64,000 nucleotides of DNA, taken from NCBI GenBank assembly GCA_030645735.1, contig JAUSNP010000003.1:27608-91607 (forward strand), in the 5' to 3' direction. This stretch comes from Candidatus Moraniibacteriota bacterium (GTDB lineage: Bacteria; Patescibacteriota; Minisyncoccia; Moranbacterales; UBA2206). Every line of letters begins with the position of its first letter. Positions within the stretch are counted from its first letter, which is position 1. A program made the translations under genes and the position numbers. The notes below the pieces were generated by a model that searched no databases, was not told where the DNA came from, and was given only the letters and a program-made list of their open reading frames with translations. Positions 15,724-49,720 of this stretch are shown in pieces.

Positions 15724-16599
15724 TCAATTGCCTATCTTTCTAACTTTTCCACCATGCAACATTTTTGCATTTTTATTTGTAATAACTTTCTTACCTGTTT
15801 TAGTTTCAATGTCTTTACGTGCATTGCCCGCTATGCCCCCACCTTCCCGCGCTACAATCTTGTTTTCATCTAAATTCTTTGGTTCACGAGTTTCAGAAAT
15901 TTCAGTGGTGGCTGTTTCGGCCAACATATTCAAAACCAATTCCAGATTAGTCATATTGTCACGCAAATTTTCTTTCTTGAGATTTTTATAGCTTTTGTAT
16001 TCTTTAGTTGTCATGCCCGCCCATGCCTGTGTGATTTCATTGGTCAAAATTGCAAACTCCAAGCCCTCTTTGACGCCTCGTTTTTCCCACTCATCTGTCA
16101 AAGATTTGCGAATTTCAATGCTCTTCAATCGTTGATTCACCCATTCTGGAGAATAGCCTTTTTGCAAATATGTTTTGAGAGCGCGATTGATTGCCAGTTC
16201 AGGATCAGCCATTTCCTCCAATCTTTCATAACCCACGCGTGCCAACCATAATTTGAATGGCTCTGCATTGGGTGAAGGAATAGATTGGATGAGACGCAAT
16301 AATGTTTCTGTATCAGCAACATCAGTGAGGCGCATTTTTCCATCTTGAGCAATCATTTTCAAACCGTTACATTTTGTAACGGTTTCATTTGAACCTTCAT
16401 CAATTAAACGCTTTTTAAGAACGCGCCAATATACTTGAGGATTATCACTATTTGTCAAAATTGAAATTACATCAACCACTGAAAAATACCACAATTCCTT
16501 TTCGCCATCCCACTGTCGACGGATTTCATTGCCTTCAAAAATTGCAACGACTTTTGTTTTTATTTTTTTCATACTATTTTTTTGAAAAATTAGACTCAC
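15724..16599 (-). CDS. DinD-like protein with an N-terminal Bro-N-type domain (paralogue 1 of 3)
   Basis: N-terminus FEGNEIRRQWDGEKELWYFSVVDVISIL is Bro-N-like. The C-terminus shares the ENLRDNM..ELV..ML and KKGGxIAGxAR blocks with the 20937..21779 and 39980..40828 copies, and from memory with E. coli DinD. An alternative start is the ATG at 16572. Confidence 0.65.
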   Translation of the reverse strand: MSLIFQKNSMKKIKTKVVAIFEGNEIRRQWDGEKELWYFSVVDVISILTNSDNPQVYWRVLKKRLIDEGSNETVTKCNGLKMIAQDGKMRLTDVADTETLLRLIQSIPSPNAEPFKLWLARVGYERLEEMADPELAINRALKTYLQKGYSPEWVNQRLKSIEIRKSLTDEWEKRGVKEGLEFAILTNEITQAWAGMTTKEYKSYKNLKKENLRDNMTNLELVLNMLAETATTEISETREPKNLDENKIVAREGGGIAGNARKDIETKTGKKVITNKNAKMLHGGKVRKIGN

Positions 16600-16600
16600 A

Positions 16601-16615
16601 GTGATATTATATCAT
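16601..16615. promoter_or_regulatory. 15-bp palindromic operator-like site GTGATATTATATCAT (consensus GTGnTATnATAnCAC), directly upstream of dinD-like paralogue 1
   Basis: The same motif with the same spacing occurs upstream of the other two paralogues (21807..21821 and 40852..40866). It is embedded in a TATAAT-like -10 sequence. Confidence 0.5.
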
Positions 16616-20936: not shown

Positions 20937-21779
20937 TTATTTTCCATTTTTCAACAATTTTTTATTCTGCGGAACTTGCAAATAATTTTCTTTTTTAATA
21001 ACCATGCTACCAGATTCTAGTTCTAGATTTTTTCGAGCGTCGCCAGCAATTTTTCCACCCTTTTGGGCGGCCACTTTGTTTTCAGAAAATCCGACGGCAT
21101 TTTTGCTAACAGCGATTCTAGTCGTGGAAGCTTCACCTAACATAGAAAAGATCAACTCCAAGTCATCCATATGATCACGCAAGTTTTCTCTCTTCAATCC
21201 CTTGTGTTCTTTGTATTCGCTGGGTGTCATATCAAAAGTTGCCCTGGATATTTCGGCTGTCAAAATTGCAAACTCCCGATCTTCTTTGATGTCTCGATTT
21301 TTCCATTCATCCGTCAATTCTTCACGAATGGCAATACCTCGCATTCTTTTTTCAATCCATGCTTCTGAATATCCTTTTAGCTTATACAATTCCCTAGTCC
21401 GCTTAGTTGCCAACTCAGGATCTTCAATTTCCTTTATTCTGTCATAGCCAACTTTAGCCAACCACCTTTTCAGTGGTTCAGCCTTTGGCGAAGGAATCGA
21501 TTGAACTATACGAAGCATGGTTTCAGTGTTGGCACAATCAGTTTCTCTAAACTTGCCGTCAGTAGCTTCCATTTTCAACTGTCCGATTTTATCGGACACT
21601 TCAATATAACCCTCACTCACTAACTTTGTTTTAAGATCACTCCAATATTTCCTTGCTCTGTCCGTGCCCGTTAAAATTCCTACTACGTCAATAACCGAAA
21701 ACCACCATTCATCCTGATATACAGCTTTTCTAATTTCCATGCCTTGAAAAATAGCTAATCCTTTATTTGTTTTTTCCAT
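20937..21779 (-). CDS. DinD-like protein with Bro-N-type N-terminus (paralogue 2 of 3)
   Basis: FQGMEIRKAVYQDEWWFSVIDVVGIL and ...ENLRDHMDDLELIFSMLGE...KGGKIAGDARK. It shares a conserved 5' region (tttttatttttattg..cttaYAGTG) and the palindromic site with paralogue 3. Confidence 0.65.
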   Translation of the reverse strand: MEKTNKGLAIFQGMEIRKAVYQDEWWFSVIDVVGILTGTDRARKYWSDLKTKLVSEGYIEVSDKIGQLKMEATDGKFRETDCANTETMLRIVQSIPSPKAEPLKRWLAKVGYDRIKEIEDPELATKRTRELYKLKGYSEAWIEKRMRGIAIREELTDEWKNRDIKEDREFAILTAEISRATFDMTPSEYKEHKGLKRENLRDHMDDLELIFSMLGEASTTRIAVSKNAVGFSENKVAAQKGGKIAGDARKNLELESGSMVIKKENYLQVPQNKKLLKNGK

Positions 21780-21806
21780 GATTTTTATTTTTATTGTTGC
21801 TTATAG

Positions 21807-21821
21807 TGATATAATAACACC
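21807..21821. promoter_or_regulatory. Palindromic operator-like site GTGATATAATAACAC upstream of dinD-like paralogue 2
   Basis: Matches GTGnTATnATAnCAC. Confidence 0.5.
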
Positions 21822-25773: not shown

Positions 25774-25828
25774 TTGAAAATTTATACTTTATTACTTTAA
25801 ACTTCTTTTAGTCTTTGGTACTTAGTCC

Positions 25829-27124
25829 TTAGACTTTTATTTTAGCTAATTCTTCTTGAATAACCTTTTTATCATTCCACTCAATTCTCTGATCCCCAAC
25901 TGCCATTGTTTCCTCAGCGCCTTTGCCAGTGACAATTACAATATCATTCGCCTTTGCTAATGACAGCGCTTTGGCGATGGCTTCACGGCGATCAAAGATT
26001 TTCCAAAAGTTTTGTCCTTCGGTTTTGTTCTTCACACCACTAGCCACTTCGTTGATGATTTGTTGTGGGTCTTCATGATAGGGGTCTTCATTGGTGACGA
26101 TGACATAATCAGCAGAAGCCGAAACAATCTCACCCATCAAAGGGCGCTTGCCACGATCACGCTCACCACAGGAACCAAAAACCGCAATGATTCGGCTATC
26201 AGTTTTTTTCACTGAGGTCAGATATTGATAGAGCTTTTGCAAAGAGTCAGGCGTCACCGCATAATCAATCATCACGTTCAAATTTTTGTCGTTGGCAATT
26301 GATTCAAGTCGTCCGGCCACACCAGTGATTTTTGCCAAAGCATTTGCTGATTGTTCCAAGGAAATGTTTTGTGAAATTCCCACAGCCACCGCTGCCAGAG
26401 AATTTTCAATATTAAATTCCCCGGGAAGATTAATTTTAAATTCACAACCTGAAACCTGAAATGCAGAATTATAAATGTCCAACTTGATATTATTCGCAAA
26501 AATATTTTGAGATTTGAGATTTGAGATTTGAGATTTTTTTGTATCTTGTATCTTGTGATTTGTATCTTTCAAGCTGTATCCAAACTTAACTGCATTATTG
26601 TATTGTAAAAACTCCTCGGGTTTTTCCATATCCAAATTCACCACCGCCACATCTGCCATCCCAAATAATTTAGCTTTGGCCTGGCGATATTGCTCAATAG
26701 TCTTGTGATAGTCCAAATGTTCACGCGTCACATTGGTGATGACTGCCACAGCATAGTGAATCCCCCACACGCGACACTGGTCCAAAGAATGTGATGAAGT
26801 TTCCAAAATCAGATAATCACATTTAGCCTCCACCGCTTTTTTGATGAACTTCTGAGTGGCAAATGGAGAAAGGGTGGTGTACTTGGTCACATTCACCCAC
26901 TCCTCAGCGCCCAATTTGAAATTTATAGTTGAAGCCATGGCGACAGTGTGTCCTGCTTCTTCCAAAATTTTGGCAATCATCTGACAAGTGGTGGTTTTGC
27001 CGTTAGTTCCAGTCACCCCAATCACCTTGATATTTCTCGACGGAAAACCATACGCAAAATTCGCCACTACCGCTTGCGCCAAGTGGTAGATGTTTTTGAT
27101 GGATTGTGGGATCAGTTTTTTCAT
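25829..27124 (-). CDS. Mur ligase family protein (MurE-like), carrying an in-frame 7-bp-unit tandem-repeat insertion
   Basis: IGVTGTNGKTTTCQMIAKIL P-loop, Mur ligase middle and C-terminal domains. A (gagattt)x4 plus (gtatctt)n block at 26509..26570 encodes ...KIQDTKKSQISNLKSQ... Confidence 0.75.
   Translation of the reverse strand: MKKLIPQSIKNIYHLAQAVVANFAYGFPSRNIKVIGVTGTNGKTTTCQMIAKILEEAGHTVAMASTINFKLGAEEWVNVTKYTTLSPFATQKFIKKAVEAKCDYLILETSSHSLDQCRVWGIHYAVAVITNVTREHLDYHKTIEQYRQAKAKLFGMADVAVVNLDMEKPEEFLQYNNAVKFGYSLKDTNHKIQDTKKSQISNLKSQNIFANNIKLDIYNSAFQVSGCEFKINLPGEFNIENSLAAVAVGISQNISLEQSANALAKITGVAGRLESIANDKNLNVMIDYAVTPDSLQKLYQYLTSVKKTDSRIIAVFGSCGERDRGKRPLMGEIVSASADYVIVTNEDPYHEDPQQIINEVASGVKNKTEGQNFWKIFDRREAIAKALSLAKANDIVIVTGKGAEETMAVGDQRIEWNDKKVIQEELAKIKV
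26509..26570. repeat. 7-bp-unit tandem repeats (gagattt)x4 followed by gtatctt-like units, inside the Mur ligase CDS
   Basis: ttgagatttgagatttgagatttgagatttttttgtatcttgtatcttgtgatttgtatctttc. The reading frame is maintained. Confidence 0.8.
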
Positions 27125-28295: not shown

Positions 28296-29318
28296 TTAAA
28301 AGAAACTTTTGATTTTCTGAATAATACGATAGGCCAAATATTTTCTTCGGCCAATTATAATGTCATAACAACCGGGGAACTTGATTGAAACAGTTACTGG
28401 AGAAAAACTTTGTTTGAATCTGGTGATGCCCGCCCAATTATTATCCGCTGTTCCTGTTTTCACTCCGCCGAAATCATACCCAATCGCCCCAAATTTTTTA
28501 GCATCTTGAATTTGCTTCCATTGCAACAGATAGGGCGCCATCACATTGCGAAAACGATCATCCGAGGCGCCATGCAAATAAGTTACTGTGTCATCAAAGA
28601 AAATCACAATATTAGCTGCAATTATTTCCCCGCCTCGCGTCGACGAGCGGTCGTCTCCGCAAGTCGAGGCGGGACCTTCAAATTCTGCATAATATAGTTT
28701 TATATTTTCTCCTGGAATTGCCTCAAACATTTTTTGATAATAATCGCGCGGATGCGGAGTGATGCTTTGACGAGCGGAAGTGATTTCCACTAAGTCGCAA
28801 AATTTGTCCACATATTTTTTTTCATTGGAAATTCCCACTCGCACACCTTTCTTTTCAGCTAGTCTGATGTTATAACGGGTTTTCGGTTTCATCTCAGCTA
28901 GCAATGTTTCTTCACTTTTGGTGATATCAATAATAAATAATTCTCTAGGTTGCATATCATGTGGCGCTTTCACGACAAACGCATCAACACTTTTCTTGGT
29001 CAAATCCAAAATTTCTTGTGACGCGGGTTCAATGCGAATCCAGCCAGCATGATGGTCTTCAGCCAAGCCAATTAGATTTTTAAAATAATTAGAAACATTC
29101 TTGTCTCTGATGTTAAAAATATTGCCCCGCGGGATATAAAAATATTTGCCGACGATTGGCAATTTGTGCTCGATGATGTTGGACCAGAATCGTTCGCCCT
29201 TGATGTTCAAAGTTTTTTTGCCAGCCAATTCTTGAAATTCTCGCCACCAGTCCGACTGTAAAAATCCTTCCCCAGGGGCTTGTTGCATCAGGTCATTAAT
29301 TTTCAAATTATCTCGCAT
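28296..29318 (-). CDS. FemAB-family peptidyltransferase (aminoacyl-tRNA-dependent peptidoglycan branch formation), with an in-frame palindromic-element insertion
   Basis: FemAB-like architecture and length. The insertion encodes GPASTCGDDRSSTRGGE. Confidence 0.65.
   Translation of the reverse strand: MRDNLKINDLMQQAPGEGFLQSDWWREFQELAGKKTLNIKGERFWSNIIEHKLPIVGKYFYIPRGNIFNIRDKNVSNYFKNLIGLAEDHHAGWIRIEPASQEILDLTKKSVDAFVVKAPHDMQPRELFIIDITKSEETLLAEMKPKTRYNIRLAEKKGVRVGISNEKKYVDKFCDLVEITSARQSITPHPRDYYQKMFEAIPGENIKLYYAEFEGPASTCGDDRSSTRGGEIIAANIVIFFDDTVTYLHGASDDRFRNVMAPYLLQWKQIQDAKKFGAIGYDFGGVKTGTADNNWAGITRFKQSFSPVTVSIKFPGCYDIIIGRRKYLAYRIIQKIKSFF
28627..28672. repeat. GC-rich ~47-bp palindromic element, copy A (ccccgcctcgcgtcgacgagcggtcgtctccgcaagtcgaggcggga)
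   Basis: 9-bp terminal inverted repeat cccgcctcg/cgaggcggg with internal palindrome cgtcgacg. About 65% GC inside an AT-rich gene. Near-identical to 36275..36321. Confidence 0.85.
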
Positions 29319-30632: not shown

Positions 30633-30762
30633 GCAAGTCTAATTTCTAAAGTTTAAAGTCTAAAAGAAGTATTTAAGTCTAAAGTTTGAAGTATTTTTTA
30701 ACTTTATACTTTTAAACTTTAGTCTTGCTTTAGACTTTAGTATTTAGACCTTAGACTTTCCG

Positions 30763-34604: not shown

Positions 34605-37343
34605 TTATATTTCTCCCCAATTATCCCCAATCTGCACATCCACTACCAATGGAACCTTGAGTTTGATGACTTGTTCCATGGCGGTTTTTATTTTTTGCGC
34701 AAAAGTTTCCGCGATTTCTTCTTTGACTTCAAACAAAAGTTCATCATGCACTTGCAAGATTGTGCGGGCCTGGCCGGCAAATTCAGCCACGACTTTTTCA
34801 GCTTCAATCATAGCCAATTTCATGATGTCAGCCGCCATGCCTTGGATTGGCATATTGATGGCCATACGTTCAGCACCAGATTGCACTTGGAAATTGGCCG
34901 AGTTTATTTCTGGAATGTAACGACGGCGACCCAGTTGTGTTTCCACGAATAAATTTTTCTTGGCTTCCTGCTTGGTGTCGTGCATATATTTGGCCACGCC
35001 CGAGAACTTTTCCATATATTCATTGATGAAATTCTTGGCTTCTTCACGATCAATGCCGGCCGAAGCCGCAAAGCCAAACACGCCCATACCATAGATGATG
35101 CCGAAGTTCAACGCCTTGGCCTTGCTGCGCATTTTTTCTGTGACTTGCGACATGGAAACCTTGTTGATGATGGAAGCAGTCGCGCGATGAATGTCTTCGC
35201 CTTTGGTGAAAGCTTCGATCATGTTTTTGTCGCCCGACACATGCGCCACCACTCGCAAATCAATTTGTGAATAATCAGCACTGACCAATTTGAAACCTTT
35301 CTCTGCCTCAAAAGCCGTGCGCAAAAGTTGCCCCACATCAGTTTTGATCGGAATGTTTTGCAAATTTGGATCAGAAGATGACAGTCGTCCAGTGGCTGCC
35401 ACCGCTTGATTGAACGAGGTGTGAATGCGTGAATTATCATCCACCAACTTCGGCAATGAATCTAGATAGGTTGTCTTCAATTTGAAAATTTCACGATATT
35501 CTTCAATCTTTTCAATGATCTTGTGTTCTCCGCGCAATTTTGTGAGCTCAGCTGAAGCAGTAGAAAAACCAGTTTTCAATTTCTTCACATTGTCTGTCGG
35601 AATCTGCAAAGTTTCAAACAAAACATCCGCCACTTGTTTGGGCGAACTGATATTGAAATCTTTGCCCGCCAGCTGGTGAATGCTTTTTTCCAGAATGGCG
35701 ATGCGTTTTTCAATGGTTTCCGAAATGCCAACAAAAATAGTCTTGTTTAAATGGATGCCATGCATTTCAATCTCAGCCAAAATCTTGACCAAGGGCATTT
35801 CAATTTTTTGCAAAACAGTTTCCAGATTATGCTTCTCACCCTGTTGCATGGAAATATCTTGAATTTTTTTCTGATGAATGCTTTCCACTTTGAAAACATA
35901 GTCTGCGCGCTGACAAATCTGTTGTGCCACTTCAGTCGCCGATTCAATTTCCAAGCCCAGTTGGCCTTTTTTGTTAGCTGCTGACAATTCTTCACCCAAT
36001 TCTTCCAAAACGATGTTTTCCAATTCAACTTTGCCACCGGGATTCAAAACATAGGCCGACAACATCACGTCCCAATAAATATTTTTGAGTTCAATTCCAT
36101 ATTTTCGCAAAACTTCAAACGCATGTTTCAAATCATAACCAATTTTTCTGATTTTTTCATTTTCAAAAATGGTTTTCAACCTGGCAAAACTCTCAACTGA
36201 ATATTCCACATAACCGGCGCGTCCGGTCTTGTGACAAATCGCCACGCCCTGGATGGTGCTGGCAAAATATTTTTCCCCGCCTCGCGTCGACGAGTGGTCG
36301 TCTCCACGAGTCGAGGCGGGTCCAACTGTCTTTAGTGTAATCGCAATTTCTTCTTGCTCACTTAATAATTTCACGAAATCATCCATTTTTTCTGGGGTTA
36401 TCAATTCAAATTTGAAATCTTTCACGCCAGCCGCATCAGTACTACTCGCTTTCATATCTCCACTTCCTTGTCCTGGCAATCGCTTAATCAATGAAAAGAA
36501 ATTCAATTCTTGAAAAAGTCTGACAATCGTCGGCCGATCAAACTCGCGCGTCACCGCTTTTTCCAAATCCAATTGCACCGGCGCGTCCAACACAATGGTT
36601 GCCAACCACTTGCTTTTGAAAGCCAAGACTTTGTTTTTTTCCAATTTGTCTTTCACTGCGCCTTTGATTTCCGCAATGTTTTCATAAACCTTTTCCACCG
36701 TGTCATATTTTTGCAAAAGAGTGGTAGCGGTTTTTTCACCGATGCCTTTGACGCCTGGAATATTGTCCGAAGCATCCCCACGCAAACTCTTGTAATCAAT
36801 CATTTGATCCGGTCGCAAACCGAACCTTTCAAAAACTTCTGGTGCGCCATAGAGCACAGTGTCAGTAATGCCACGACGCAACGCAAAAACTTTGGTAGTG
36901 TCATTCACTAATTGCAAAGTGTCCAAATCGCCAGTCACGATGATATTTTCAATGCCTGCATTCAATTTTTTTGATTGTGTCACGATGGTTCCAATCACAT
37001 CATCCGCCTCAAAACCTTCTTTTTCATAAATCGGAATGTTGAAAGCGCGCACCAATTCCTTGACGCGATCAATCTGCGCATACAACTCATCCGGCGCCTT
37101 GGTGCGAGTGGCTTTGTATTCCGCATATTCCTCATGACGAAAAGTCGGCGCCTTCAAATCGAAAGTGGCGATGATATAGTCCGGCTGAAATCTTTCAATC
37201 ACGCTGAGCAGTGTCGAAGCAAAACCATAAACCGCATTCACCAACTCGCCTGACTTGGTCGACAACGGTGGCAAAGCATGAAACGAACGATGAATAATCG
37301 CATTGCCGTCGATAACTACTAGTTTTTTAGTCTTTTTTTCCAT
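34605..37343 (-). CDS. polA: DNA polymerase I (5'-3' exonuclease, 3'-5' exonuclease-like and polymerase domains), with an in-frame palindromic-element insertion
   Basis: 5'-nuclease N-terminus (VIDGNAIIHRSFHALPPL), and polymerase motifs RRxAKxxNFGxxYG (RSKAKALNFGIIYG) and VHDELLFEV. The insertion encodes GPASTRGDDHSSTRGGE between the nuclease and polymerase regions. Confidence 0.9.
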   Translation of the reverse strand: MEKKTKKLVVIDGNAIIHRSFHALPPLSTKSGELVNAVYGFASTLLSVIERFQPDYIIATFDLKAPTFRHEEYAEYKATRTKAPDELYAQIDRVKELVRAFNIPIYEKEGFEADDVIGTIVTQSKKLNAGIENIIVTGDLDTLQLVNDTTKVFALRRGITDTVLYGAPEVFERFGLRPDQMIDYKSLRGDASDNIPGVKGIGEKTATTLLQKYDTVEKVYENIAEIKGAVKDKLEKNKVLAFKSKWLATIVLDAPVQLDLEKAVTREFDRPTIVRLFQELNFFSLIKRLPGQGSGDMKASSTDAAGVKDFKFELITPEKMDDFVKLLSEQEEIAITLKTVGPASTRGDDHSSTRGGEKYFASTIQGVAICHKTGRAGYVEYSVESFARLKTIFENEKIRKIGYDLKHAFEVLRKYGIELKNIYWDVMLSAYVLNPGGKVELENIVLEELGEELSAANKKGQLGLEIESATEVAQQICQRADYVFKVESIHQKKIQDISMQQGEKHNLETVLQKIEMPLVKILAEIEMHGIHLNKTIFVGISETIEKRIAILEKSIHQLAGKDFNISSPKQVADVLFETLQIPTDNVKKLKTGFSTASAELTKLRGEHKIIEKIEEYREIFKLKTTYLDSLPKLVDDNSRIHTSFNQAVAATGRLSSSDPNLQNIPIKTDVGQLLRTAFEAEKGFKLVSADYSQIDLRVVAHVSGDKNMIEAFTKGEDIHRATASIINKVSMSQVTEKMRSKAKALNFGIIYGMGVFGFAASAGIDREEAKNFINEYMEKFSGVAKYMHDTKQEAKKNLFVETQLGRRRYIPEINSANFQVQSGAERMAINMPIQGMAADIMKLAMIEAEKVVAEFAGQARTILQVHDELLFEVKEEIAETFAQKIKTAMEQVIKLKVPLVVDVQIGDNWGEI
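36275..36321. repeat. GC-rich ~47-bp palindromic element, copy B (ccccgcctcgcgtcgacgagtggtcgtctccacgagtcgaggcgggt)
   Basis: About 43/47 identical to copy A and in the same orientation. Similar A/T-then-CCCC left flank. Confidence 0.85.
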
Positions 37344-37389: not shown

Positions 37390-38172
37390 TTAACTTTCTT
37401 TAGCATTTTCCCACAGCTTATCCACGATGCTTTCCATCATCTCAACTAAATATTTATCTTCAATCACAATGGCCAAGGGAGCCAATGGTTGCCAGAAGAT
37501 AACTTTGTTGCCAAAAAGTTGAAAAGACGTCTGAAATGGGAAGAAGCCCTTGAGCAATCTTGTCTCTCGCAATTCCTTCTCATCTGTTTCTTTTAGAGTT
37601 TCGGCATCCTTACTTGGCAAAAGCAAGGCATTGATGAAAAGTTTCTTTTCTAAACGTTCTTTTATCCATTTCTTTTCATCCGCCCAAGAAATAAACCCAA
37701 TAAAATCCTGTACCGATCCACAAAACCAGATTTTTCCATTGGCCTCTTCCAGAATGTTAAAAAATATTTTTCTAAAATCATCATTGCCATGAAATATTTT
37801 TATTTTCGTTGGCATTTCACCTTGTTGATAATTAGCCAACAGACTTGGCATAGCTGACACCAATGCATTTTCTTTTTGAGAATATTCTTGTTTTTTCTCT
37901 CTAAATTTTTCCAAAACTAGAGATGGTGGCTCAACAAAAAAGTTTCTGGAATATTTCTTCTTATCAGAAAATTTTGCCAGGCCTTTTTCTTCCAACCTTT
38001 TAATAATCTTATATACATTTGGTCTAGCAATATTCAAATGCTTGGCAATTCCAGATATCGAAGAAGCGCCCATCTTTAGGGAAATTATGTATGTTTCTAT
38101 TTCCAAATCAGACAAACCAAGCTCCTTTAGAGGATTGTATAGAACATTATAAATGTTATTGTTTTCTTCCAT
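37390..38172 (-). CDS. TrmB-family HTH transcriptional regulator
   Basis: LSDLEIETYIISLKMGASSISGIAKHLNIARPNVYKIIKRLEEKGLAKF. Confidence 0.7.
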   Translation of the reverse strand: MEENNNIYNVLYNPLKELGLSDLEIETYIISLKMGASSISGIAKHLNIARPNVYKIIKRLEEKGLAKFSDKKKYSRNFFVEPPSLVLEKFREKKQEYSQKENALVSAMPSLLANYQQGEMPTKIKIFHGNDDFRKIFFNILEEANGKIWFCGSVQDFIGFISWADEKKWIKERLEKKLFINALLLPSKDAETLKETDEKELRETRLLKGFFPFQTSFQLFGNKVIFWQPLAPLAIVIEDKYLVEMMESIVDKLWENAKES

Positions 38173-38257
38173 GGCTTAAAATCAAGTAAAAATCACTATT
38201 TTTATGTTGTAAGTGTATACTCATGATATACATATCAAAGAAATATGTCAATATTCC

Positions 38258-38286
38258 TTGACTTTTACCAATTTATAGTGTATACT
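38258..38286 (+). promoter_or_regulatory. Sigma-70-like promoter (TTGACT, 17 nt, TATACT) upstream of the 38388..38693 CDS
   Basis: Consensus-like -35/-10 with 17-nt spacing. Direct repeats agtgtatact at about 38211 and 38276 flank it. Confidence 0.4.
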
Positions 38287-38387
38287 ACATAGTCAAGCTA
38301 AGAACAGGAAACGAACCCAAAGCTTGAAGAACCTTAAAAACTCAATAGTCCAATATCGGATAAAACCAATTTTCCAAGGAGAAAACA

Positions 38388-38693
38388 ATGAGAAACAGTA
38401 TCTGCAAAAAGAGTGGGGTTATTACGAGGATAAAAATAACCTTCACTAAGAAGGGTAGCACTTCCGTATCAGAGGCATTCTTTGATACACGAGAAGTGAC
38501 AACGGCGACTAGAGCAGAATCTCCACAATACAGTGATTTGACTAGTTGTGGCTCGTCAATGCCCTTTGTTACAAAAATAAAGGGTACACAAGAGGTCAAG
38601 GCACTGATAAAACAGCGCTACGGGACAGAAATTGAAGTTCAAAAAATACAGACCGAATGTTGGTATTCACCAACATATTCATACGGTCCGTAG
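38388..38693 (+). CDS. Hypothetical protein (101 aa)
   Basis: AAGGAG SD before the ATG and a strong terminator after it. Confidence 0.5.
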   Translation: MRNSICKKSGVITRIKITFTKKGSTSVSEAFFDTREVTTATRAESPQYSDLTSCGSSMPFVTKIKGTQEVKALIKQRYGTEIEVQKIQTECWYSPTYSYGP

Positions 38694-38764
38694 TGTAGTA
38701 ATGCCTTATCCAAACTCCGATTACCACAGGCTTCGAGGCAACCTGACAGCAAGCCTCTCAATCA

Positions 38765-38800
38765 CCCCGAACAATTATCACATTGTTCGGGGCTTTTTAT
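38765..38800 (+). terminator. Rho-independent terminator
   Basis: ccccgaacaattatcacattgttcgggg followed by ctttttatt. Confidence 0.6.
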
Positions 38801-39053
38801 TGTTGAAAAATTTAAAAGCCGCTGGGAAGTTATTCCACAGCGGCTTTGTCATACTAAATAAACAGAATTGCCATAATTTATGGCGACGGGGTCAAGTTTT
38901 GAAGATTTGAAGTCTGACCCTCGAGAATTGGCATGGTTGGGATTTGAATTAGCTAAAACAAATCATTCCACCAATTCAAAGTTAGATTGTCACTACTCGT
39001 GCATCACGCAATGCACATCACAACAGAATTACTAAACAGCGAGTATTGGATGC

Positions 39054-39491
39054 CTAGCACTCCTCATCCTTGTCATCAATTTCCATATCCCATGATTCAA
39101 GCTCGGGATATTCATCCTGATCTAAACCAGGGAATCCATCATCATCAACATCCTCTTCCGAAAAATTGGAATCGTCGTCGTCAGCACCGTCAACAGCGGC
39201 GGCATCTGCAGCATCTTCACGTCGTTGTTCCTCTGCTGCATCATCAATCTTATCTAAGCACTTGTCGCAGTGAAAAAACGGCTGGGATAAAAGCTCCTTT
39301 TTAGCTTCTTCCTGCATTTCTTCATTAGAAACGTTGTATGGATTGTTCTCACTATCCTTAGCGAAGACACCCAATACAAGAACATCTACCGTTTCAGGAC
39401 ACAAGCAACACCTAATTTCCTTGCCTCCCTCTCTGGTTTCACGCTCAATAAAAGCCGTGAAATTACCCATTGGAAAGATATCCATGTGCAT
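39054..39491 (-). CDS. Hypothetical protein with an N-terminal Cys cluster (CCLCPE...HCDKC) and a highly acidic Asp/Glu-rich C-terminal tail
   Basis: 145 aa. GC-richer than its surroundings. Possible zinc-ribbon followed by a disordered acidic tail. Confidence 0.45.
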   Translation of the reverse strand: MHMDIFPMGNFTAFIERETREGGKEIRCCLCPETVDVLVLGVFAKDSENNPYNVSNEEMQEEAKKELLSQPFFHCDKCLDKIDDAAEEQRREDAADAAAVDGADDDDSNFSEEDVDDDGFPGLDQDEYPELESWDMEIDDKDEEC

Positions 39492-39807
39492 GACATACTC
39501 CTTTGTAACTTTACTACGTTATTGCTCAAATGAGCCTAACAAGATCCTACAACTTTAAAAATATCCTCCTTAATTTATTTGTTAAACAACAATTCCTCCA
39601 GTGAACACTATTGTCCACCACAAGCTAGTTTATTTGAAAAGCGTGTCTTTGTCAACGTAAAACTAGCCTGCTGGAAATTCCAGCATACTGAAATTTTACA
39701 ACACACATATCATTATCACGAATTATAACTTCGAGTTTTTGAACTATAAAGAAACTCTTAATAGTTCGAATGGATTTATTTTTTAAATTGCGCTGGCTTA
39801 GCTAAGC

Positions 39808-39834
39808 CAATTCCGGAAATTCCGGAATTGGCTC
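39808..39834. repeat. 27-bp near-perfect palindrome gccaattccggaaattccggaattggc
   Basis: Shares the core TTCCGGAA(A)TTCCGGAA with 39939..39965. Another palindrome, ggcttagctaagcc, sits immediately upstream. Confidence 0.7.
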
Positions 39835-39866
39835 TAATAGTGAATCGCTTATCTTACGAAATATAC

Positions 39867-39889
39867 AAAAAACCCGCCTTTCAGAGGGT
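39867..39889. repeat. Direct repeat aaaaaacccgcctttcagagggt, a degenerate copy of the hairpin at 40904..40926
   Basis: 20/22 identical to 40904..40926. The two copies bracket dinD-like paralogue 3 and its promoter. Confidence 0.6.
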
Positions 39890-39938
39890 AAAAAATTTTC
39901 ATCAGTTTATATTATTTTTTATTTTTAATCCATTTGAG

Positions 39939-39965
39939 TTATCCGGAATTTCCGGATAACTCAGG
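39939..39965. repeat. 27-bp near-perfect palindrome gagttatccggaatttccggataactc
   Basis: TCCGGAAxTTCCGGA core. Lies just 3' of dinD-like paralogue 3. Confidence 0.7.
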
Positions 39966-39979
39966 CAACACTCAAATAA

Positions 39980-40828
39980 CTAATTTTTCAATTTTTTTAC
40001 AGTTTTATTTTTTAGCAAAAAATTCCTGCCAGTCACCACACTTTTGCCAGTTTTTTCTTCCAAGGCTAGTCTCGCGTCTTTGGCGATTTTGCCACCTTTT
40101 TTCGCTGGGATTTTATTTTCTTCCAAACCTCTCGCCTCATCTGTTTCCGCAATTCTTCTGGTAGAAATTTCAGCCAGTGCCGTGAAAATCAATTCTTCTT
40201 CACTCATGTGATCACGCAAATTTTGTGTTTTCAGGCCTTTCAAATTTTTGTGATCTTTGACTGATAAATCTGTCCATTCTTCATGAATGATGTTGGTCAG
40301 GATCGCAAACTCTTCGCCTCTTTTCACTTCATTGCCACTCCAATAATCCGTCAGCTTATTTCTCACTTCCTGCCCCATCATTCTTTGTTGAATCCATGCC
40401 GCACTGCGTCCTTGTTTTTGCCAATATTCTCTGGAACGATTGAGGGCTATTTCCGGATCAGTCATTTCCTGCATTCTTTCATAACCAACTTTCGCTAACC
40501 ACAATTTTACTGGTTCGGCTTTTGGACTTGGTACCGATTGAATCAATCGCAATAAAGTTTCTACATTAGCTGCATCAGTCTCATAATATTTACCATCAGT
40601 AGCCATAAATTTCAGTTGGTGACAATTTGTCACCGACTCATTTCCCTCTTTCCCCAATCTCTCCTTAAGTTTATTCCAGTATTTTCTAGCTGTTTTATAA
40701 TCATTCTGTTGAATTAAGGCTTGCATAATATCAACCACCGAAAAATACCAAACCTCAGTTTTCTCGTCATAATGCCGACGAATCTTAAAGTTTTCAAAAA
40801 TAGCCAGTGAGTTTTGATTTTTTTCCAT
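39980..40828 (-). CDS. DinD-like protein with Bro-N-type N-terminus (paralogue 3 of 3)
   Basis: FENFKIRRHYDEKTEVWYFSVVDIMQAL and ...QNLRDHMSEEELIFTALAE...KKGGKIAKDAR. Confidence 0.65.
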   Translation of the reverse strand: MEKNQNSLAIFENFKIRRHYDEKTEVWYFSVVDIMQALIQQNDYKTARKYWNKLKERLGKEGNESVTNCHQLKFMATDGKYYETDAANVETLLRLIQSVPSPKAEPVKLWLAKVGYERMQEMTDPEIALNRSREYWQKQGRSAAWIQQRMMGQEVRNKLTDYWSGNEVKRGEEFAILTNIIHEEWTDLSVKDHKNLKGLKTQNLRDHMSEEELIFTALAEISTRRIAETDEARGLEENKIPAKKGGKIAKDARLALEEKTGKSVVTGRNFLLKNKTVKKLKN

Positions 40829-40851
40829 AGTTTTTATTTTTATTGCTTACA

Positions 40852-40866
40852 GTGTTATTATATCAC
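40852..40866. promoter_or_regulatory. Palindromic operator-like site GTGTTATTATATCAC upstream of dinD-like paralogue 3
   Basis: Perfect GTGnTATnATAnCAC palindrome. Confidence 0.5.
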
Positions 40867-40903
40867 TAGGCATCTTTCCGTCAAGTCACCTATCCACACA
40901 AGC

Positions 40904-40926
40904 AAAAACCCGCCTTTCAGCGGGTT
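40904..40926. terminator. Hairpin aaaaacccgcctttcagcgggtt. It terminates the cyclophilin gene and is the right copy of the direct repeat.
   Basis: 7-bp stem aacccgc/gcgggtt. On the minus strand it is followed by cttgtgtgga, so the T-run is weak. Confidence 0.5.
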
Positions 40927-40945
40927 TTCAAGTTCAACTAGATTT

Positions 40946-41698
40946 CTATTTTTCCAAAAGTTCCACACCAGTGATCACTACATTCTCCACTGGTCGATCC
41001 CCAGGGACGGTTTTCACGTTTTCAATTTTGAGGGCCACGTCCATGCCAGAGACCACACTACCAAACACGGTGTAGCTGGGTGGCAATGGCGCTTCGGGGC
41101 TGGCAGTCACAATGAAAAATTGTGAACCATTAGTATTTGGTCCTGCATTGGCCATCGCCAGTGTGCCTTGTGGATATTTTTCTGTGCCTTTCAATTCATC
41201 CTTGAAACGATAGTCTGGGCCACCCATGCCCCAATTGCTCGTGTTGGCATTTCTTGAGTTCGGGTCACCACCTTGAATCATGAAGCCCTTGATCACACGA
41301 TGAAATTTCAAATTGTCATAGAAACCAGCACTGGCTAGTTTCAAAAAGTTGCCCACTGTCACTGGAGTTTCAGCGTTGTTGAATTTGAATTGGATGTCCC
41401 CCATACTGGTTTTCAAAACGGCTCCGGTATATTTTTTGACCAAGGCTGAATTATCGCCCAATGTTTTTGCTACGTCTCCCATAGAATTGTTTTCGTTTAA
41501 TGTATTATTTAGTCTTTCGTTTTCTTTGTTGGTCGCATCCTGGACATTTTGTTGCGCTGTGTTTTTCAAAGCAATCATGTCCTTGGTGTTGCCCACCGGA
41601 TCGGTAATCGGATTGGCAATCCCCGTCTTGTCACCACCCGAGCACCCCGCCAGCACCAAGATCGCCAGCATCGGCAAAACAATTCTCATTTTTCGCAT
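40946..41698 (-). CDS. Cyclophilin-type peptidyl-prolyl cis-trans isomerase, lipoprotein
   Basis: Lipobox LAGCSG. Cyclophilin core FHRVIKGFMIQGGDP...GTLAMANAGPNTNGSQFFI. Confidence 0.85.
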   Translation of the reverse strand: MRKMRIVLPMLAILVLAGCSGGDKTGIANPITDPVGNTKDMIALKNTAQQNVQDATNKENERLNNTLNENNSMGDVAKTLGDNSALVKKYTGAVLKTSMGDIQFKFNNAETPVTVGNFLKLASAGFYDNLKFHRVIKGFMIQGGDPNSRNANTSNWGMGGPDYRFKDELKGTEKYPQGTLAMANAGPNTNGSQFFIVTASPEAPLPPSYTVFGSVVSGMDVALKIENVKTVPGDRPVENVVITGVELLEK

Positions 41699-45259: not shown

Positions 45260-48200
45260 ATGCCAAAAATACTTCACAAAAAATCATCCGCGGAACCCTC
45301 CAAGGCTGATATGCAAAAACAAGAAGATACCCAAAAAGTTTTGTCCAAAATGCGTCATCAATCTGAAGAAGAACGCGCTTCAGCTTTTGCGGCGGTCATT
45401 GGCATGACTTACATTGATACCAATTTAATTCCCATCGAAACTGACGCTATCAAAACCCTCTCTGAAGAAGAAGCTCACCAATTCAATGTAGCCGTCATCG
45501 CTAAGACTGGTAAAAAAATAACTGTCATCTCGACTGATCCAACCGTGCCAGCAACCTTGGAGTTTTTGAAAAACTTGCGCGAATCCAATGGCTGGGAACT
45601 GAATGTTTTTGTGGTTTCTCAATATAACCTGGAGAAGGTTTTGGACCGCTACAAAAAAATTGTTTTCACTGACATTCTTTCACAACTCAGTGTCAGCCTA
45701 ACAGGCGAAGATTTGCAGAAATTTGATGAGTATTTGAAAGATCTGACCACCCTCAAACAAAGAATCAATGAATTGCCTACTACCCAAATTTTGAATGTAA
45801 TGATGGGTGGGGCCTACAAACTAGGCGCCAGTGACATCCACATCGAACCACAAGAAAAAGAATTTCGTTTGCGCTATCGTATCGATGGAATTTTGCACGA
45901 TGTCGCTTTTTTACCATTGAATGTTTTCAAAACAGTGGTAAATCGTGTGAAAATGATGTCCGATATGAAACTCAATTTGAGAGACATTGCGCAAGATGGA
46001 ACTTTTGAAGTAAATATTGAAGACAAAAAAATTGCCATTCGTGTTTCAATTATTCCTGGTAGCTATGGCGAAAGCATCGTAATGAGAATTCTTGACCCAG
46101 CGTCTATCCAAGTAGCGGTAGAAAATTTGGGTTTACGCGGATTGGCTTATGAAATTATTCAGAAACAAATCAATGCTCCTAGCGGCATGATTCTAACTAC
46201 TGGCCCGACTGGTTCCGGGAAAACCACCACCCTCTATGCTATTGTCAACAAACTCAATGATCCCGAAACAAAAATCATCACTATTGAAGACCCAATTGAA
46301 TATGAAGTGACTGGCATCTCCCAAACTCAAGTTGAAAAATCCCGCGGTTATGATTTTGCCTCAGGCCTTCGAGCTATCGTCCGTCAAGATCCAGATGTAA
46401 TTCTCGTGGGAGAAATTCGCGATGAAGAGACCGTGGACATTGCCATTAACTCGGCATTAACTGGTCACCTAGTGTTATCTACGATTCACACCAACAGTGC
46501 CATCGCCACCATTGCGCGAATGATTGAAATGGGCGTCAAGCCAACTTTGATTGCGCCAGCTACCAATGCCTTCATTGGACAACGTTTGGTGCGCAAATTG
46601 TGTGATTGCAAAGAAGAATACACCCCTGCCAAAGAATCACTAGAATCTTTGAAAAAAATTATTTCTATTATTTCACCAAAATCAAAATTGGAAGTGCCCA
46701 AGGAAATCAAAACGCTCTTCCGACCCAAGGGTTGTCCAAAATGCAACAACCTTGGCTACAAAGGACGCATGGGAATTTTTGAAGTTTTCACCATCAATGA
46801 AGAAATTGAAAAATTGATTGTCAATTTTGCTTCCGAAGCGGAAATCACTATGGCCGCCTTGGAAGCTGGTATGATCACGATGTTGCAAGACGGAATTTTG
46901 AAATCTCTAGAAGGCATCACTTCGATTGAAGAGGTGAAACGCGCTACAGGTGAAGGCGATTTTTTGCAAAATATTTATGAAAAATTGATGGCTTCCACTT
47001 TGGGTCACGGTGTTTTGATTGAACCAATTCATTATTCAACCGCTCTAGAAAATATCAAAGACTTTCAAAAATTGCAGACAGTCATCAGCACTTCTGCCAC
47101 CAAAGATATCAATAAAATAGTTTTTGCAGCTGCTTCAATTTTGCGCACGGGTGACATTCACATTGAACCAGGACCTGATAATGTCAAAGTTCGCTTCCGT
47201 ATTGATGGAATTTTGCAAACTGTTGTCACCTATCCGCTCAATGAATATCCAAATATCTTGGGTGAAATAAAAATCCTGTCTGGTGTCAAAACCGAAGTGC
47301 GAGAAGGTGTGATTGATAGTCGTTTCAGCATCAAGTTTGACGAGGAAATTCCTGATATCAAAGAAAGGTCAGTTGATGTGCGTGTTTCCATCATTCTGGG
47401 TGGCTATGGTGAGACTGTGGTAATGCGTCTTTTGAGCAAAGCTTCGCAAGAATTGGATATCAACAAATTAGGCATCAGTGAACAAAACAAGAAAAAAATC
47501 ATGCATGAAATTTCCAAACCCAATGGCGTGTTTTTGAACACTGGCCCAACTGGCTCTGGAAAAACTACTACATTATATTCAATTGTAAATATCCTCAATA
47601 AACCGGAAGTCAAAATCATCACTGTTGAAGATCCAATTGAATATCAAATAGAAGGTATCTTGCAAACTCCAACCAATGACAAAGAAGGCTACACTTTTGC
47701 CACCGCTTTGCGCGCACTTCTGCGTCAAAACCCTGACATTATGATGATTGGTGAAATCCGTGATGATGAGACCGCTCAAGTGGCCGTACAAGCCGCTTTG
47801 ACTGGTCATATGGTGCTTTCCACCATTCACACCAACAATGCCGCTGGCGCGGTCCAGAGAATGCTCAACATGGGTGTTTCACCATCCGACATCGCCTCAG
47901 CCGTCAACGCTTTTATGGCACAACGCTTAGTGCGCAAATTGTGTGACTGCAAAGAAAAAATTTCTTTGACTACTGAAGACAAAGAAAAGATTGAGCGAGT
48001 CTTGAAAACTATTTCTCCCAAAGCTGGTGTAGAAATTCCCGCCATTGGTGAAATTTATACTCACAAAGGTTGCGAAAAATGCAACAACATCGGCTACAAA
48101 GGCCGAACCACTATCAGCGAAATCTTTGTCATCGATCGCGACATCCAAGAACTCATCAATCGTGGCGCTATCACTTCCGAACTGGCCGACAAAGCCACTG

Positions 48201-48295
48201 AAAATGGCATGATCACCATGGCACAAGATGGAGTTTTGAAAGTGTTGAATGGTGAGACGACGTTGGAAGAAGTGGAGAGAGTTACCGAGATCTAG
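45260..48295 (+). CDS. Tandem-duplicated GspE/PilB-type secretion ATPase. Two complete ATPase cores are fused in one 1011-aa polypeptide.
   Basis: Walker A appears twice (TGPTGSGKTTTLYAIVNKL and TGPTGSGKTTTLYSIVNIL). Asp box / Walker B appears twice (DPDVILVGEIRDEET and NPDIMMIGEIRDDET). His box appears twice (HLVLSTIHTN and HMVLSTIHTN). The tetracysteine motif appears twice (CDCKE...GCPKCNNLGYKGR and CDCKE...GCEKCNNIGYKGR). There is an N-terminal T2SSE_N-like domain. Confidence 0.85.
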   Translation: MPKILHKKSSAEPSKADMQKQEDTQKVLSKMRHQSEEERASAFAAVIGMTYIDTNLIPIETDAIKTLSEEEAHQFNVAVIAKTGKKITVISTDPTVPATLEFLKNLRESNGWELNVFVVSQYNLEKVLDRYKKIVFTDILSQLSVSLTGEDLQKFDEYLKDLTTLKQRINELPTTQILNVMMGGAYKLGASDIHIEPQEKEFRLRYRIDGILHDVAFLPLNVFKTVVNRVKMMSDMKLNLRDIAQDGTFEVNIEDKKIAIRVSIIPGSYGESIVMRILDPASIQVAVENLGLRGLAYEIIQKQINAPSGMILTTGPTGSGKTTTLYAIVNKLNDPETKIITIEDPIEYEVTGISQTQVEKSRGYDFASGLRAIVRQDPDVILVGEIRDEETVDIAINSALTGHLVLSTIHTNSAIATIARMIEMGVKPTLIAPATNAFIGQRLVRKLCDCKEEYTPAKESLESLKKIISIISPKSKLEVPKEIKTLFRPKGCPKCNNLGYKGRMGIFEVFTINEEIEKLIVNFASEAEITMAALEAGMITMLQDGILKSLEGITSIEEVKRATGEGDFLQNIYEKLMASTLGHGVLIEPIHYSTALENIKDFQKLQTVISTSATKDINKIVFAAASILRTGDIHIEPGPDNVKVRFRIDGILQTVVTYPLNEYPNILGEIKILSGVKTEVREGVIDSRFSIKFDEEIPDIKERSVDVRVSIILGGYGETVVMRLLSKASQELDINKLGISEQNKKKIMHEISKPNGVFLNTGPTGSGKTTTLYSIVNILNKPEVKIITVEDPIEYQIEGILQTPTNDKEGYTFATALRALLRQNPDIMMIGEIRDDETAQVAVQAALTGHMVLSTIHTNNAAGAVQRMLNMGVSPSDIASAVNAFMAQRLVRKLCDCKEKISLTTEDKEKIERVLKTISPKAGVEIPAIGEIYTHKGCEKCNNIGYKGRTTISEIFVIDRDIQELINRGAITSELADKATENGMITMAQDGVLKVLNGETTLEEVERVTEI

Positions 48296-49310: not shown

Positions 49311-49720
49311 GTGCTAATCTGTGATTCTGACAATAATCTGCAGGCAAGTCCCAAGAGTTAGACCCTCGGGGAAGGAACAGTATCGAGGCACGACCCAGCC
49401 GAAACCAGAACGCCCATATCTTGATAAAAAGTTCCCAAAATTGATGACAAAAGATAGAAGTCACCAATTGCCTACAGCTTACTGCTAGCCATATAAAAAG
49501 GCATTGTTTCAGCCGAACTCATATGACTAAGTAGCTTAGCATAGCTTGGGTTTTTTGTCAAGTAATGCTAAGATGAGCCTAGAGCTCAAAAAGGCTAAGG
49601 CCTAAAGACCAAAGACTAAACAAAGCATTAAGACCAAAATAATAACCACTTAAACCTTTCTACTTTTTAAGCTTTAGACTTGTTTTAGTCTTTAGTAATT
49701 AGACTTTAGACTTAAAATTT

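Follow-up and report, generated by a model that had tools for sequence, protein, structure and literature searches.

How does a gene come to lie between two nearly identical copies of a terminator hairpin, with a row of palindromes behind it? This question is raised by a Bro-N gene (39980..40828, minus strand) in a 64,000-nt stretch of DNA from a Candidatus Moraniibacteriota bacterium (assembly GCA_030645735.1, contig JAUSNP010000003.1, positions 27,608 to 91,607), which is called the window here and to which all coordinates refer. An earlier note on this DNA suggested that the gene had arrived as a cassette which inserted into a terminator and duplicated its target, as IS200/IS605-like or hairpin-targeting elements might do. 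The observation itself proved sound, and the transposon-style inference was largely refuted. We found that the gene occupies a gene-turnover hot spot between a cyclophilin gene and polA, and we give about even chances to the view that this is a hot spot for candidate defence genes, in which the left hairpin is a degenerate ectopic copy of the right one, the palindromes are solo copies of a palindrome of RhuM genes, and all of them are debris of gene replacement.

The terminator hairpin and its second copy

The direct repeat is real. With the A-run included, its two 23-mers (39867-39889 and 40904-40926) differ by one stem substitution and one base of a homopolymer run, and they are the sole copies in the window, which was the part of the source genome searched for further copies of hairpin and palindromes: the motif AACCCGCCTTTCAG[A/C]GGGT was found only at 39871-39889 and 40907-40925 of the 64 kb with 3 mismatches allowed (0.01 expected by chance). 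As had been noted, the copies bracket one gene with its promoter, namely the Bro-N gene and a promoter at 40884-40857. The right copy (T, 40903..40925, minus strand, assigned by fold and synteny) reads on the minus strand as stem ACCCGCU, loop GAAA and stem GGCGGGU followed by U5, with a folding energy of -16.3 kcal/mol (z -4.4; fold z-scores and the significance of alignments were taken against shuffled sequence). A stable G+C-rich 7-bp hairpin with U5 and a same-strand gene upstream, T is an intrinsic terminator, and the earlier description of this copy as the working, orthologous terminator of the cyclophilin gene and of the left copy as a decayed one was borne out. The left copy (T', 39866..39889, minus strand, assigned by motif match and fold) lies ~90 nt past the Bro-N stop codon; a single G-to-U change breaks the middle of its stem, so that the central pair is lost, a U6 tract is present, and its folding energy of -6.2 kcal/mol (z -0.7) is no better than that of shuffles.

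Loci of relatives (L numbers) were collected from public genomes and metagenomes with polA and cyclophilin as anchors, and 3 Mb of these fetched loci formed the comparison set for the T hairpin and the palindrome cores. The T hairpin also stands 3' of cyclophilin in L002/L087, in L004 with 3 mismatches, and in L005 as a close variant; in the 3 Mb it occurs solely after cyclophilin orthologues, T' being the only addition. The loop of T' is GAAA as in the window's own T, and that of L002 is GCAA. This loop, together with the confinement of the hairpin to cyclophilin loci, indicates that the resident terminator was the source of T' and that the copying took place in or near this lineage.

The likeness of T and T' is limited to ~25 nt, comprising the stem-loop and the U tract, and has sharp borders. 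Local and hairpin-anchored alignments gave no significant longer duplication into the cyclophilin 3' end or the promoter (p 0.1-0.5, against shuffles and AT-matched window segments). Behind T', where the sequence now begins gtatatttcgtaag, a decayed promoter copy was sought and only the trace ATAATGATAT was found, which was not significant (p 0.05-0.12). Unrelated flanks beside a nearly intact 25-mer mean that the hairpin borders are break points of rearrangement; a long duplication that had decayed gradually would look different.

Gene content between cyclophilin and polA

The Bro-N gene is the present occupant of a slot with two conserved borders, on the left the gene of a cyclophilin-type peptidyl-prolyl isomerase (40946..41698, minus strand; Pfam Pro_isomerase, E 5.8e-45), whose orthologues adjoin polA in relatives, and on the right polA (34605..37343, minus strand, located by the anchor searches). 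On the minus strand the order is cyclophilin, T, promoter, Bro-N, the palindrome pal2, T', the palindromes pal1 and pal0, a 145-aa orphan open reading frame (ORFan), a TrmB gene and polA. Cyclophilin directly adjoins polA in L003, L010, L099 and L102, the slot being empty. The slot holds a RhuM gene in the closest relatives L002/L087 (polA 90% and cyclophilin 94% identical in amino acids), ORF6N in L004 and L089, GIY-YIG, ORF6N and a 668-aa protein in L005, a Schlafen/AlbA_2 protein in L007/L095, and DUF3276, pilin-like, toxin-antitoxin or restriction-modification genes in other relatives; its content also differs in L091, L101 and L168, and TrmB-like genes stand at the same place in L004, L089 and L168. 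With the same flanking genes, variable content and empty sites, the cyclophilin-polA interval is a gene-turnover hot spot. Of the earlier cassette idea, the point that genes come and go at this site is supported, and an insertion into the terminator with target duplication is not. Empty sites exist as cyclophilin-polA adjacency; T directly joined to what now stands behind T' was seen in none of the relatives.

L168 (cyclophilin 72% identical in amino acids) carries cyclophilin, terminator, promoter and Bro-N collinear with window positions 41584-39988 (75% nucleotide identity over 1611 nt). The homology stops at the Bro-N 3' end, beyond which an ordinary bidirectional terminator, an unrelated 113-aa gene, TrmB and polA follow, and neither a second copy of the upstream hairpin nor a palindrome of the TTCCGGAA type was found in the L168 slot. 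The 81% identity of the L168 and window Bro-N genes does not prove orthology because the family is so conserved, and the palindrome that the L168 gene carries is of another subtype than the window's. Exact-protein look-ups with Bro-N, cyclophilin and TrmB and a metagenome scan for closer strains or alternative alleles returned only the same contig and an L002-like lineage.

The occupant, previously called 'DinD-like' paralogue 3, matches Bro-N (PF02498, gathering threshold 25.6 bits) with 34.8 bits, and the other two paralogues of the window reach 38.2 and 39.7 bits. The DinD identity (NCBIfam PRK11525, cut-off 242 bits) was rejected, paralogue 3 having no match and paralogue 1 only 27.7 bits over a C-terminal stretch, so 'DinD-like' is a loose label. 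Paralogue 3 also matches the PADLOC family PDC-S13 over its full length (E 3.1e-115), and the RhuM and ORF6N proteins of relatives match PDC-S05 (3e-130). PADLOC PDC families are untested candidate phage-defence systems (bioRxiv 10.1101/2024.01.29.577857), and by membership of such families the slot genes are candidate anti-phage genes. More than 8000 homologues of paralogue 3 were found; among the 120 matches listed, 76-100% identical, the named ones come from Patescibacteria lineages. Close Bro-N homologues lie in unrelated contexts with no common flanks, hence they reveal no cassette borders.

The terminator-promoter module

A strong, conserved sigma-70-type promoter with a palindromic, operator-like element (40847..40884, minus strand, 11/12 consensus matches) separates T from the Bro-N gene. 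The promoter reads TTGACG-16-TATAAT at 40884-40857, and the operator-like palindrome GTGATATAATAACACTGTAA overlies its -10 hexamer. The same combination precedes all three Bro-N paralogues of the window (the others at 15724-16599 and 20937-21779) as well as RhuM, ORF6N, GIY-YIG and DUF3276 genes in relatives, the palindrome TAGTGATAT(A/T)ATATCACTA being located at 40847-40866, 16596-16615 and 21801-21820 of the window and at 4242-4262 of L008. Its presence on the -10 hexamers of all these promoters looks like a shared regulon. The half-sites GTGATA/TATCAC recall the TrmBL1 motif of Thermococcales with the order reversed. Two of the three Bro-N paralogues have TrmB-family genes nearby.

In the window, L002, L004 and L005 the same promoter follows the cyclophilin terminator and ends (T)AGTGATATAATAACACTGTAA, and the homology stops right after it. 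Between the window and L002, identity is ~90% over the cyclophilin gene and 78% over the module, and likewise ends right past the promoter. As the module is conserved while the following gene differs, the module is resident and the gene behind it exchangeable.

A DnaA-box-like motif, cTATCCACA (40890..40898, plus strand), lies between T and the -35 hexamer and is putative. The DnaA-box consensus TTATCCACA also occurs, in either orientation, upstream of the -35 hexamer in L008, L091, L101 and L168.

Palindromes downstream of the Bro-N gene

Palindrome search and folding located pal1 (39805..39833, core TTCCGGAAATTCCGGAA) and pal2 (39935..39963, 16 nt past the Bro-N stop codon), both perfect 14+1+14 palindromes; their existence had been noted correctly, with a length of 27 bp where it is really 29 and with starts that were 2-3 nt off. 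The two, of the TTCCGGAA type, have the 15-mer TCCGGAAWTTCCGGA in common, found nowhere else in the window as an exact match. They fold with -23.5 (pal1) and -20.9 kcal/mol (pal2), z about -6, and possess neither a U tract nor a real loop. Further palindromes mentioned for the vicinity are indeed present, gctggaaattccagc at 39670-39684 and ggcttagctaagcc at 39795-39808, and a shorter relative of pal1 and pal2 lies at 39669-39685. The latter is part of pal0 (39669..39696), which was recognised by its match to the L002 RhuM gene: 25/28 nt agree with L002 1284-1311, and likewise with RhuM of L087 and L008. The ungapped score against L002 was 19, compared with 10.9 +/- 1.1 for dinucleotide shuffles (0/300 as high).

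The matched segment of the L002 gene is a 27-nt palindrome in its own right, CAGTATGCCGGAAATTCCAGCATACTG, which encodes S-V-C-R-K-F-Q-H-T where the Pfam RhuM domain begins and whose core CCGGAAATTCC is common to pal1 and pal2. Read on the gene strand, pal2 gives V-I-R-K-F-R-I-T-Q. The 18 nt of its core, ATCCGGAAATTCCGGATA, equal the in-gene palindrome of the RhuM gene on viral contig L195 (T-I-R-K-F-R-I-V-Q), and its inner 27 nt recur exactly as an intergenic hairpin behind a folE-like gene on the AT-rich phage contig L188. By their sequence, pal0, pal1 and pal2 look like solo copies of the RhuM-type in-gene palindrome. ORF6N-type palindromes likewise occur as solo copies, within the slot or next to it in L005 and L091 and on the far side of tsaE in L008; L008 also has a RhuM gene that is truncated shortly past its palindrome. 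A RhuM pseudogene around pal0 was considered and rejected, since anchored DNA alignments reached significance in neither orientation and translated searches gave weak, mutually inconsistent frames.

The window contains 8 perfect hairpins with arms of at least 10 nt, compared with 0.29 +/- 0.53 in shuffles (~28-fold enrichment), so the palindromes are not due to chance. Many such hairpins lie within genes of the related Moranbacteria loci, including polA, tsaE, ORF6N, RhuM and Bro-N. With Rfam 15, only two tRNAs were found in the window, and 38100-41000 had no meaningful match at E<=1. Two megablast searches of E. coli genomes with the palindrome core, following an enterobacterial-type prophage lead, were empty, and restriction-site avoidance of TCCGGA was rejected (19 sites observed vs 16 expected).

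Palindromes within Bro-N, RhuM and ORF6N genes

The Bro-N gene itself contains a perfect palindrome, ggtgacaaAttgtcacc (40618..40634), at the codons S-V-T-N-C-H-Q. All three Bro-N paralogues of the window have a palindrome at the same codons (V-T-K/N-C-H/D/N; 40618-40634, 16361-16385 and 21580-21598) with different arms. Homologous, covarying palindromes were found in 14 of 16 Bro-N family members from four phyla, namely the candidate phyla radiation (CPR), Bacteroidota, Campylobacterota and Alphaproteobacteria, plus two gut phage-like contigs (L298, L299, L295, L296, L297 and L294 besides the window copies); two Chlorohelix Bro-N homologues had no palindrome. The palindrome is kept in homologues of only 43-50% identity, with arms of 14 nt in Arcobacter, 12 nt in Parabacteroides, 12 nt in Haliscomenobacter, 10 nt in Paracaedimonas, and 13 and 8 nt in the two phage-like contigs.

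The mirrored amino acids covary as reverse-complement codons (GTG/CAC, GTC/GAC, GTT/AAC, GCT/AGC, ACT/AGT, CTT/AAG). In a small sample of 16 sequences, from which the structure was itself derived, 82% of the cells pair, vs 62% in shuffles (0/500 as high) and at most 37.5% with the register slid, and 42 cells are changed on both sides, vs 14 in shuffles (0/500 as high). G-U pairs occur in 1/192 cells, and this near absence suggests a symmetry at the DNA level rather than an RNA helix. No published description of the Bro-N in-gene pattern was found in a literature search.

RhuM genes carry in-gene palindromes at L002 1290-1316, at L090 10326-10352 and in L195, and ORF6N genes at L005 7186-7252, L089 6887-6917 and L101 1462-1531; these palindromes of PDC-S05 genes are perfect, with arms of 10-15 nt. 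The ORF6N palindromes of L005 fall in a stretch of ~22 aa that is inserted with respect to the Pfam model, and similar ones are present in L089 and L101. Cores of the form GTCACA...TGTGAC recur here, the reading frame differing. Covarying perfect palindromes also span the conserved motif S-P-T-F-L-I-M-K-H-Y-K-K in tsaE orthologues (L010 8775-8805, L011 9651-9679, L092 5273-5299).

Neighbouring genes and other repeats

The 145-aa ORFan (39054..39491, minus strand) is a putative gene; a promoter-like site lies at 39655-39627, and the product would have two pairs of Cys residues and a C-terminal half that is very acidic. Among 5.8 billion proteins it had no homologue but itself, and Pfam, PHROG and PADLOC gave no match. 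Some 0.9 kb without a convincing gene separates it from the TrmB-family regulator gene (37390..38172, minus strand; Pfam TrmB, E 4e-13), which lies directly upstream of polA, on the right-hand side of the variable region. In 38100-40000, remnants of other slot genes were sought with ORF6N, GIY-YIG, AlbA_2, SLT and L168 113-aa queries, and nothing convincing was found.

A 52-nt G+C-rich palindromic repeat sits as an in-frame insertion in polA (36272-36323) and in an unrelated gene of the FemAB family (28625-28676), the copies being 92% identical; related pieces occur in polA of L003, L106 and L107, and other in-frame palindromes in the same polA linker region of L008 (19-nt arms) and L089 (16-nt arms). 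Three intergenic copies of a 60-nt repeat with many TTTAGACTT/TTAGTCTTT units, 68-80% identical, lie at 25778-25837, 30700-30759 and 49655-49714. Prophage-like contigs of ~40-48% G+C (L179, L184, L185, L197, L200, L204, L234) have a three-hairpin module, in which AACTATCCGGAAATTCCGGA(G/T)AGTT is flanked by two other palindromes, with no Rfam match and absent from E. coli genomes. The 1011-aa protein encoded at 45260-48295 consists of two tandem T2SSE-type secretion ATPase units, with internal DNA repeats at 46184/47525 and 46726/48064.

Origin of the hairpin copy and the palindromes

If the left hairpin and the palindromes are debris of gene replacement, two units of terminator, promoter and gene, the one carrying Bro-N and the other RhuM, would have been stacked in tandem by recombination through the module they share. 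The rear unit would then have been eroded by deletions ending at hairpins, so that the hairpin-forming pieces alone persist, and the 0.5 kb downstream of Bro-N would be the debris of earlier replacements. In the present arrangement T would end the cyclophilin transcript, the promoter would drive the Bro-N gene, and the 3' untranslated region of this gene would include, or end at, pal2 and the weak T'. Recombination between two module copies could equally have produced L002.

Several points weigh against this history. The remnants are neither ordered nor spaced as in a simple stacked unit, ~160 nt including pal1 lying between T' and the nonsignificant promoter-like trace. No significant RhuM sequence flanks pal0 on either side, the orientation of pal0 is ambiguous, and three RhuM-type palindromes exceed what one lost gene explains. 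An intermediate arrangement was looked for in related strains and none was found. The palindrome subtypes of the Bro-N genes of L168 and the window differ, which leaves vertical inheritance of the occupant unproven, and the search for copies in the source genome spans 64 kb.

The alternative that survives best, although we consider it unlikely, is that no second unit was ever stacked and that T' is a templated patch, ~25 nt copied from T during break repair or rearrangement by template switching or snap-back priming and perhaps kept as a makeshift Bro-N terminator. The short length of the copy, with borders exactly at the stem and the U tract, the position of its source T only 1 kb away on the same strand, and the U6 tract of T' ~90 nt past the stop codon all agree with this, and the richness of the genome in perfect palindromes points to active hairpin-templated processes. 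However, a fold no better than that of shuffles makes selection for termination doubtful, and the neighbouring RhuM-type palindromes are left unexplained.

It is also conceivable, at a distinctly low probability, that pal0, pal1 and pal2 are operators for a dimeric DNA-binding protein, such as the adjacent TrmB-family regulator or one of the RhuM/KilA-N type, which would recognise CCGGAAWTTCCGG and putatively control the 145-aa gene or read-through from Bro-N; the earlier note had mentioned a dimeric regulator or recombinase as well, and this explanation is compatible with several origins of T'. Three sites with a GGAAWTTCC core lie within 290 bp at spacings of 130 and 142 bp, pal0 is 13 nt upstream of the -35 hexamer of the promoter-like site of the 145-aa gene, a regulator gene is 1.3 kb off, and the in-gene palindromes without G-U pairs fit a symmetry of duplex DNA. 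Operators rarely show site-specific arms with perfect 14-nt symmetry, however, and here the outer arms differ between sites yet are symmetric within each over 14 nt, which fits self-complementarity of the DNA rather than a fixed protein site; no further core sites were found in the window, nor in the 3 Mb of related loci outside RhuM genes.

More speculatively, and in our estimate improbable, the perfect palindromes as a class (those within genes, pal0 to pal2 and possibly the copied terminator) may be functional DNA hairpin or cruciform sites on which some system acts, whether through hairpin-directed swapping or truncation of defence genes at promoter-equipped slots, in an attC-like manner but with no known integrase, or through control or sensing by DNA structure within these genes.

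The insertion originally proposed has become very improbable. It would require that promoter and Bro-N entered a terminator hairpin as a mobile cassette with duplication of ~23 nt of target, through a hairpin-recognising enzyme (IS200/IS605-like, RAYT-like or integron-like) encoded elsewhere and acting in trans. Direct repeats that bracket exactly one gene and its promoter are what such an event would leave, all three paralogues begin right after a terminator and have the promoter in common, and the gene family is present in many unrelated contexts across CPR. The supposed junction, on the other hand, is conserved: terminator and promoter are joined in the same way in L002, L004, L005 and L168, some of which carry other slot genes, and in L168 the gene occupies this place with no repeats around it, which the earlier note had itself named as evidence against its inference. 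Paralogues 1 and 2 are flanked by unrelated hairpins on their two sides. The earlier note had itself seen no transposase gene, and neither transposase, TnpB nor integrase was found among 28 tested genes (19 within ~15 kb of the site and others including the three Bro-N paralogues), where all matches were to housekeeping, regulator or Bro-N families; the hairpin has two copies in the window. To our knowledge, IS200/IS605 elements make no target duplication, and one of 23 nt is atypical for transposases.

Least probable of all is that pal1, T' and pal2 (39805-39963) form a small non-autonomous element, similar to a miniature inverted-repeat transposable element or to repetitive extragenic palindromic (REP) elements, that landed behind Bro-N and resembles a terminator by chance, for although T' lies nearly midway between the two palindromes with their identical 15-nt core (centres 61 and 69 nt apart) and other palindromic insertions exist in the genome, including those in frame in polA and the FemAB-family gene, no second copy of this module was found in the window or related loci, the resident T is the best hairpin match to T', and no target duplication is visible around the module.

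Comparison with known systems

A duplicated terminator and two hairpins alone would be a modest curiosity, and their context is more informative: ultra-small CPR genomes appear to keep a promoter-equipped slot for the exchange of candidate anti-phage genes, and this locus shows what may be the leftovers of exchange. The part that deserves follow-up is the covarying palindrome within the genes, a regularity that is apparently unreported and that, if functional, would be a feature at the level of DNA structure in a very abundant, functionally uncharacterised gene family.

Defence islands and integration hot spots between core genes are known from the pangenomes of E. coli, Pseudomonas and Vibrio, including the P2/P4 prophage hot spots. 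The slot resembles them in that housekeeping genes, cyclophilin and polA, flank an interval which varies among close relatives and whose content comes from defence-associated families (PDC-S13, PDC-S05, Schlafen/AlbA_2, toxin-antitoxin and restriction-modification, with AbiEii nearby). It differs from them in that a conserved terminator-promoter module stays while the gene changes, in the absence of an integrase, a tRNA gene or mobile-element borders, in its location in a reduced CPR genome, and in that the slot genes are candidates only.

The locus lacks the defining features of integrons, of IS200/IS605 or REP elements, and of insertion with target duplication. IS200/IS605 elements, REP elements with their REP-associated tyrosine transposases (RAYT), and class C group II introns make no target duplication, depend on TnpA, RAYT or a reverse transcriptase, and are present in several copies. 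They share with this locus the use of hairpin DNA and intrinsic terminators as landmarks, but none of their enzymes was found among the 28 genes and no copies beyond the two in the window. As to intrinsic terminators themselves, T is a textbook case, whereas T' lacks the central stem pair and pal1 and pal2 lack the U tract.

Integrons likewise combine one resident promoter with interchangeable single genes, and hairpin DNA at the junctions, such as pal2 16 nt past the stop codon, adds to the resemblance; however, no IntI was found among the tested neighbours, no attI was found, and there is no cassette array. Integron attC sites are imperfect, 57-141 bp long and contain extrahelical bases, whereas the palindromes here are perfect, 29 bp long and also occur inside coding sequences.

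Rickettsia palindromic elements (RPE) and other small palindromic repeats within coding genes are similar in that palindromic DNA lies in frame in genes, in this lineage polA, FemAB-family and ORF6N genes, and related solo copies are intergenic. The palindromes of Bro-N and RhuM genes, unlike RPE, are no insertions; they code for a conserved part of the domain, always at one position, and covariation of their arms extends across phyla.

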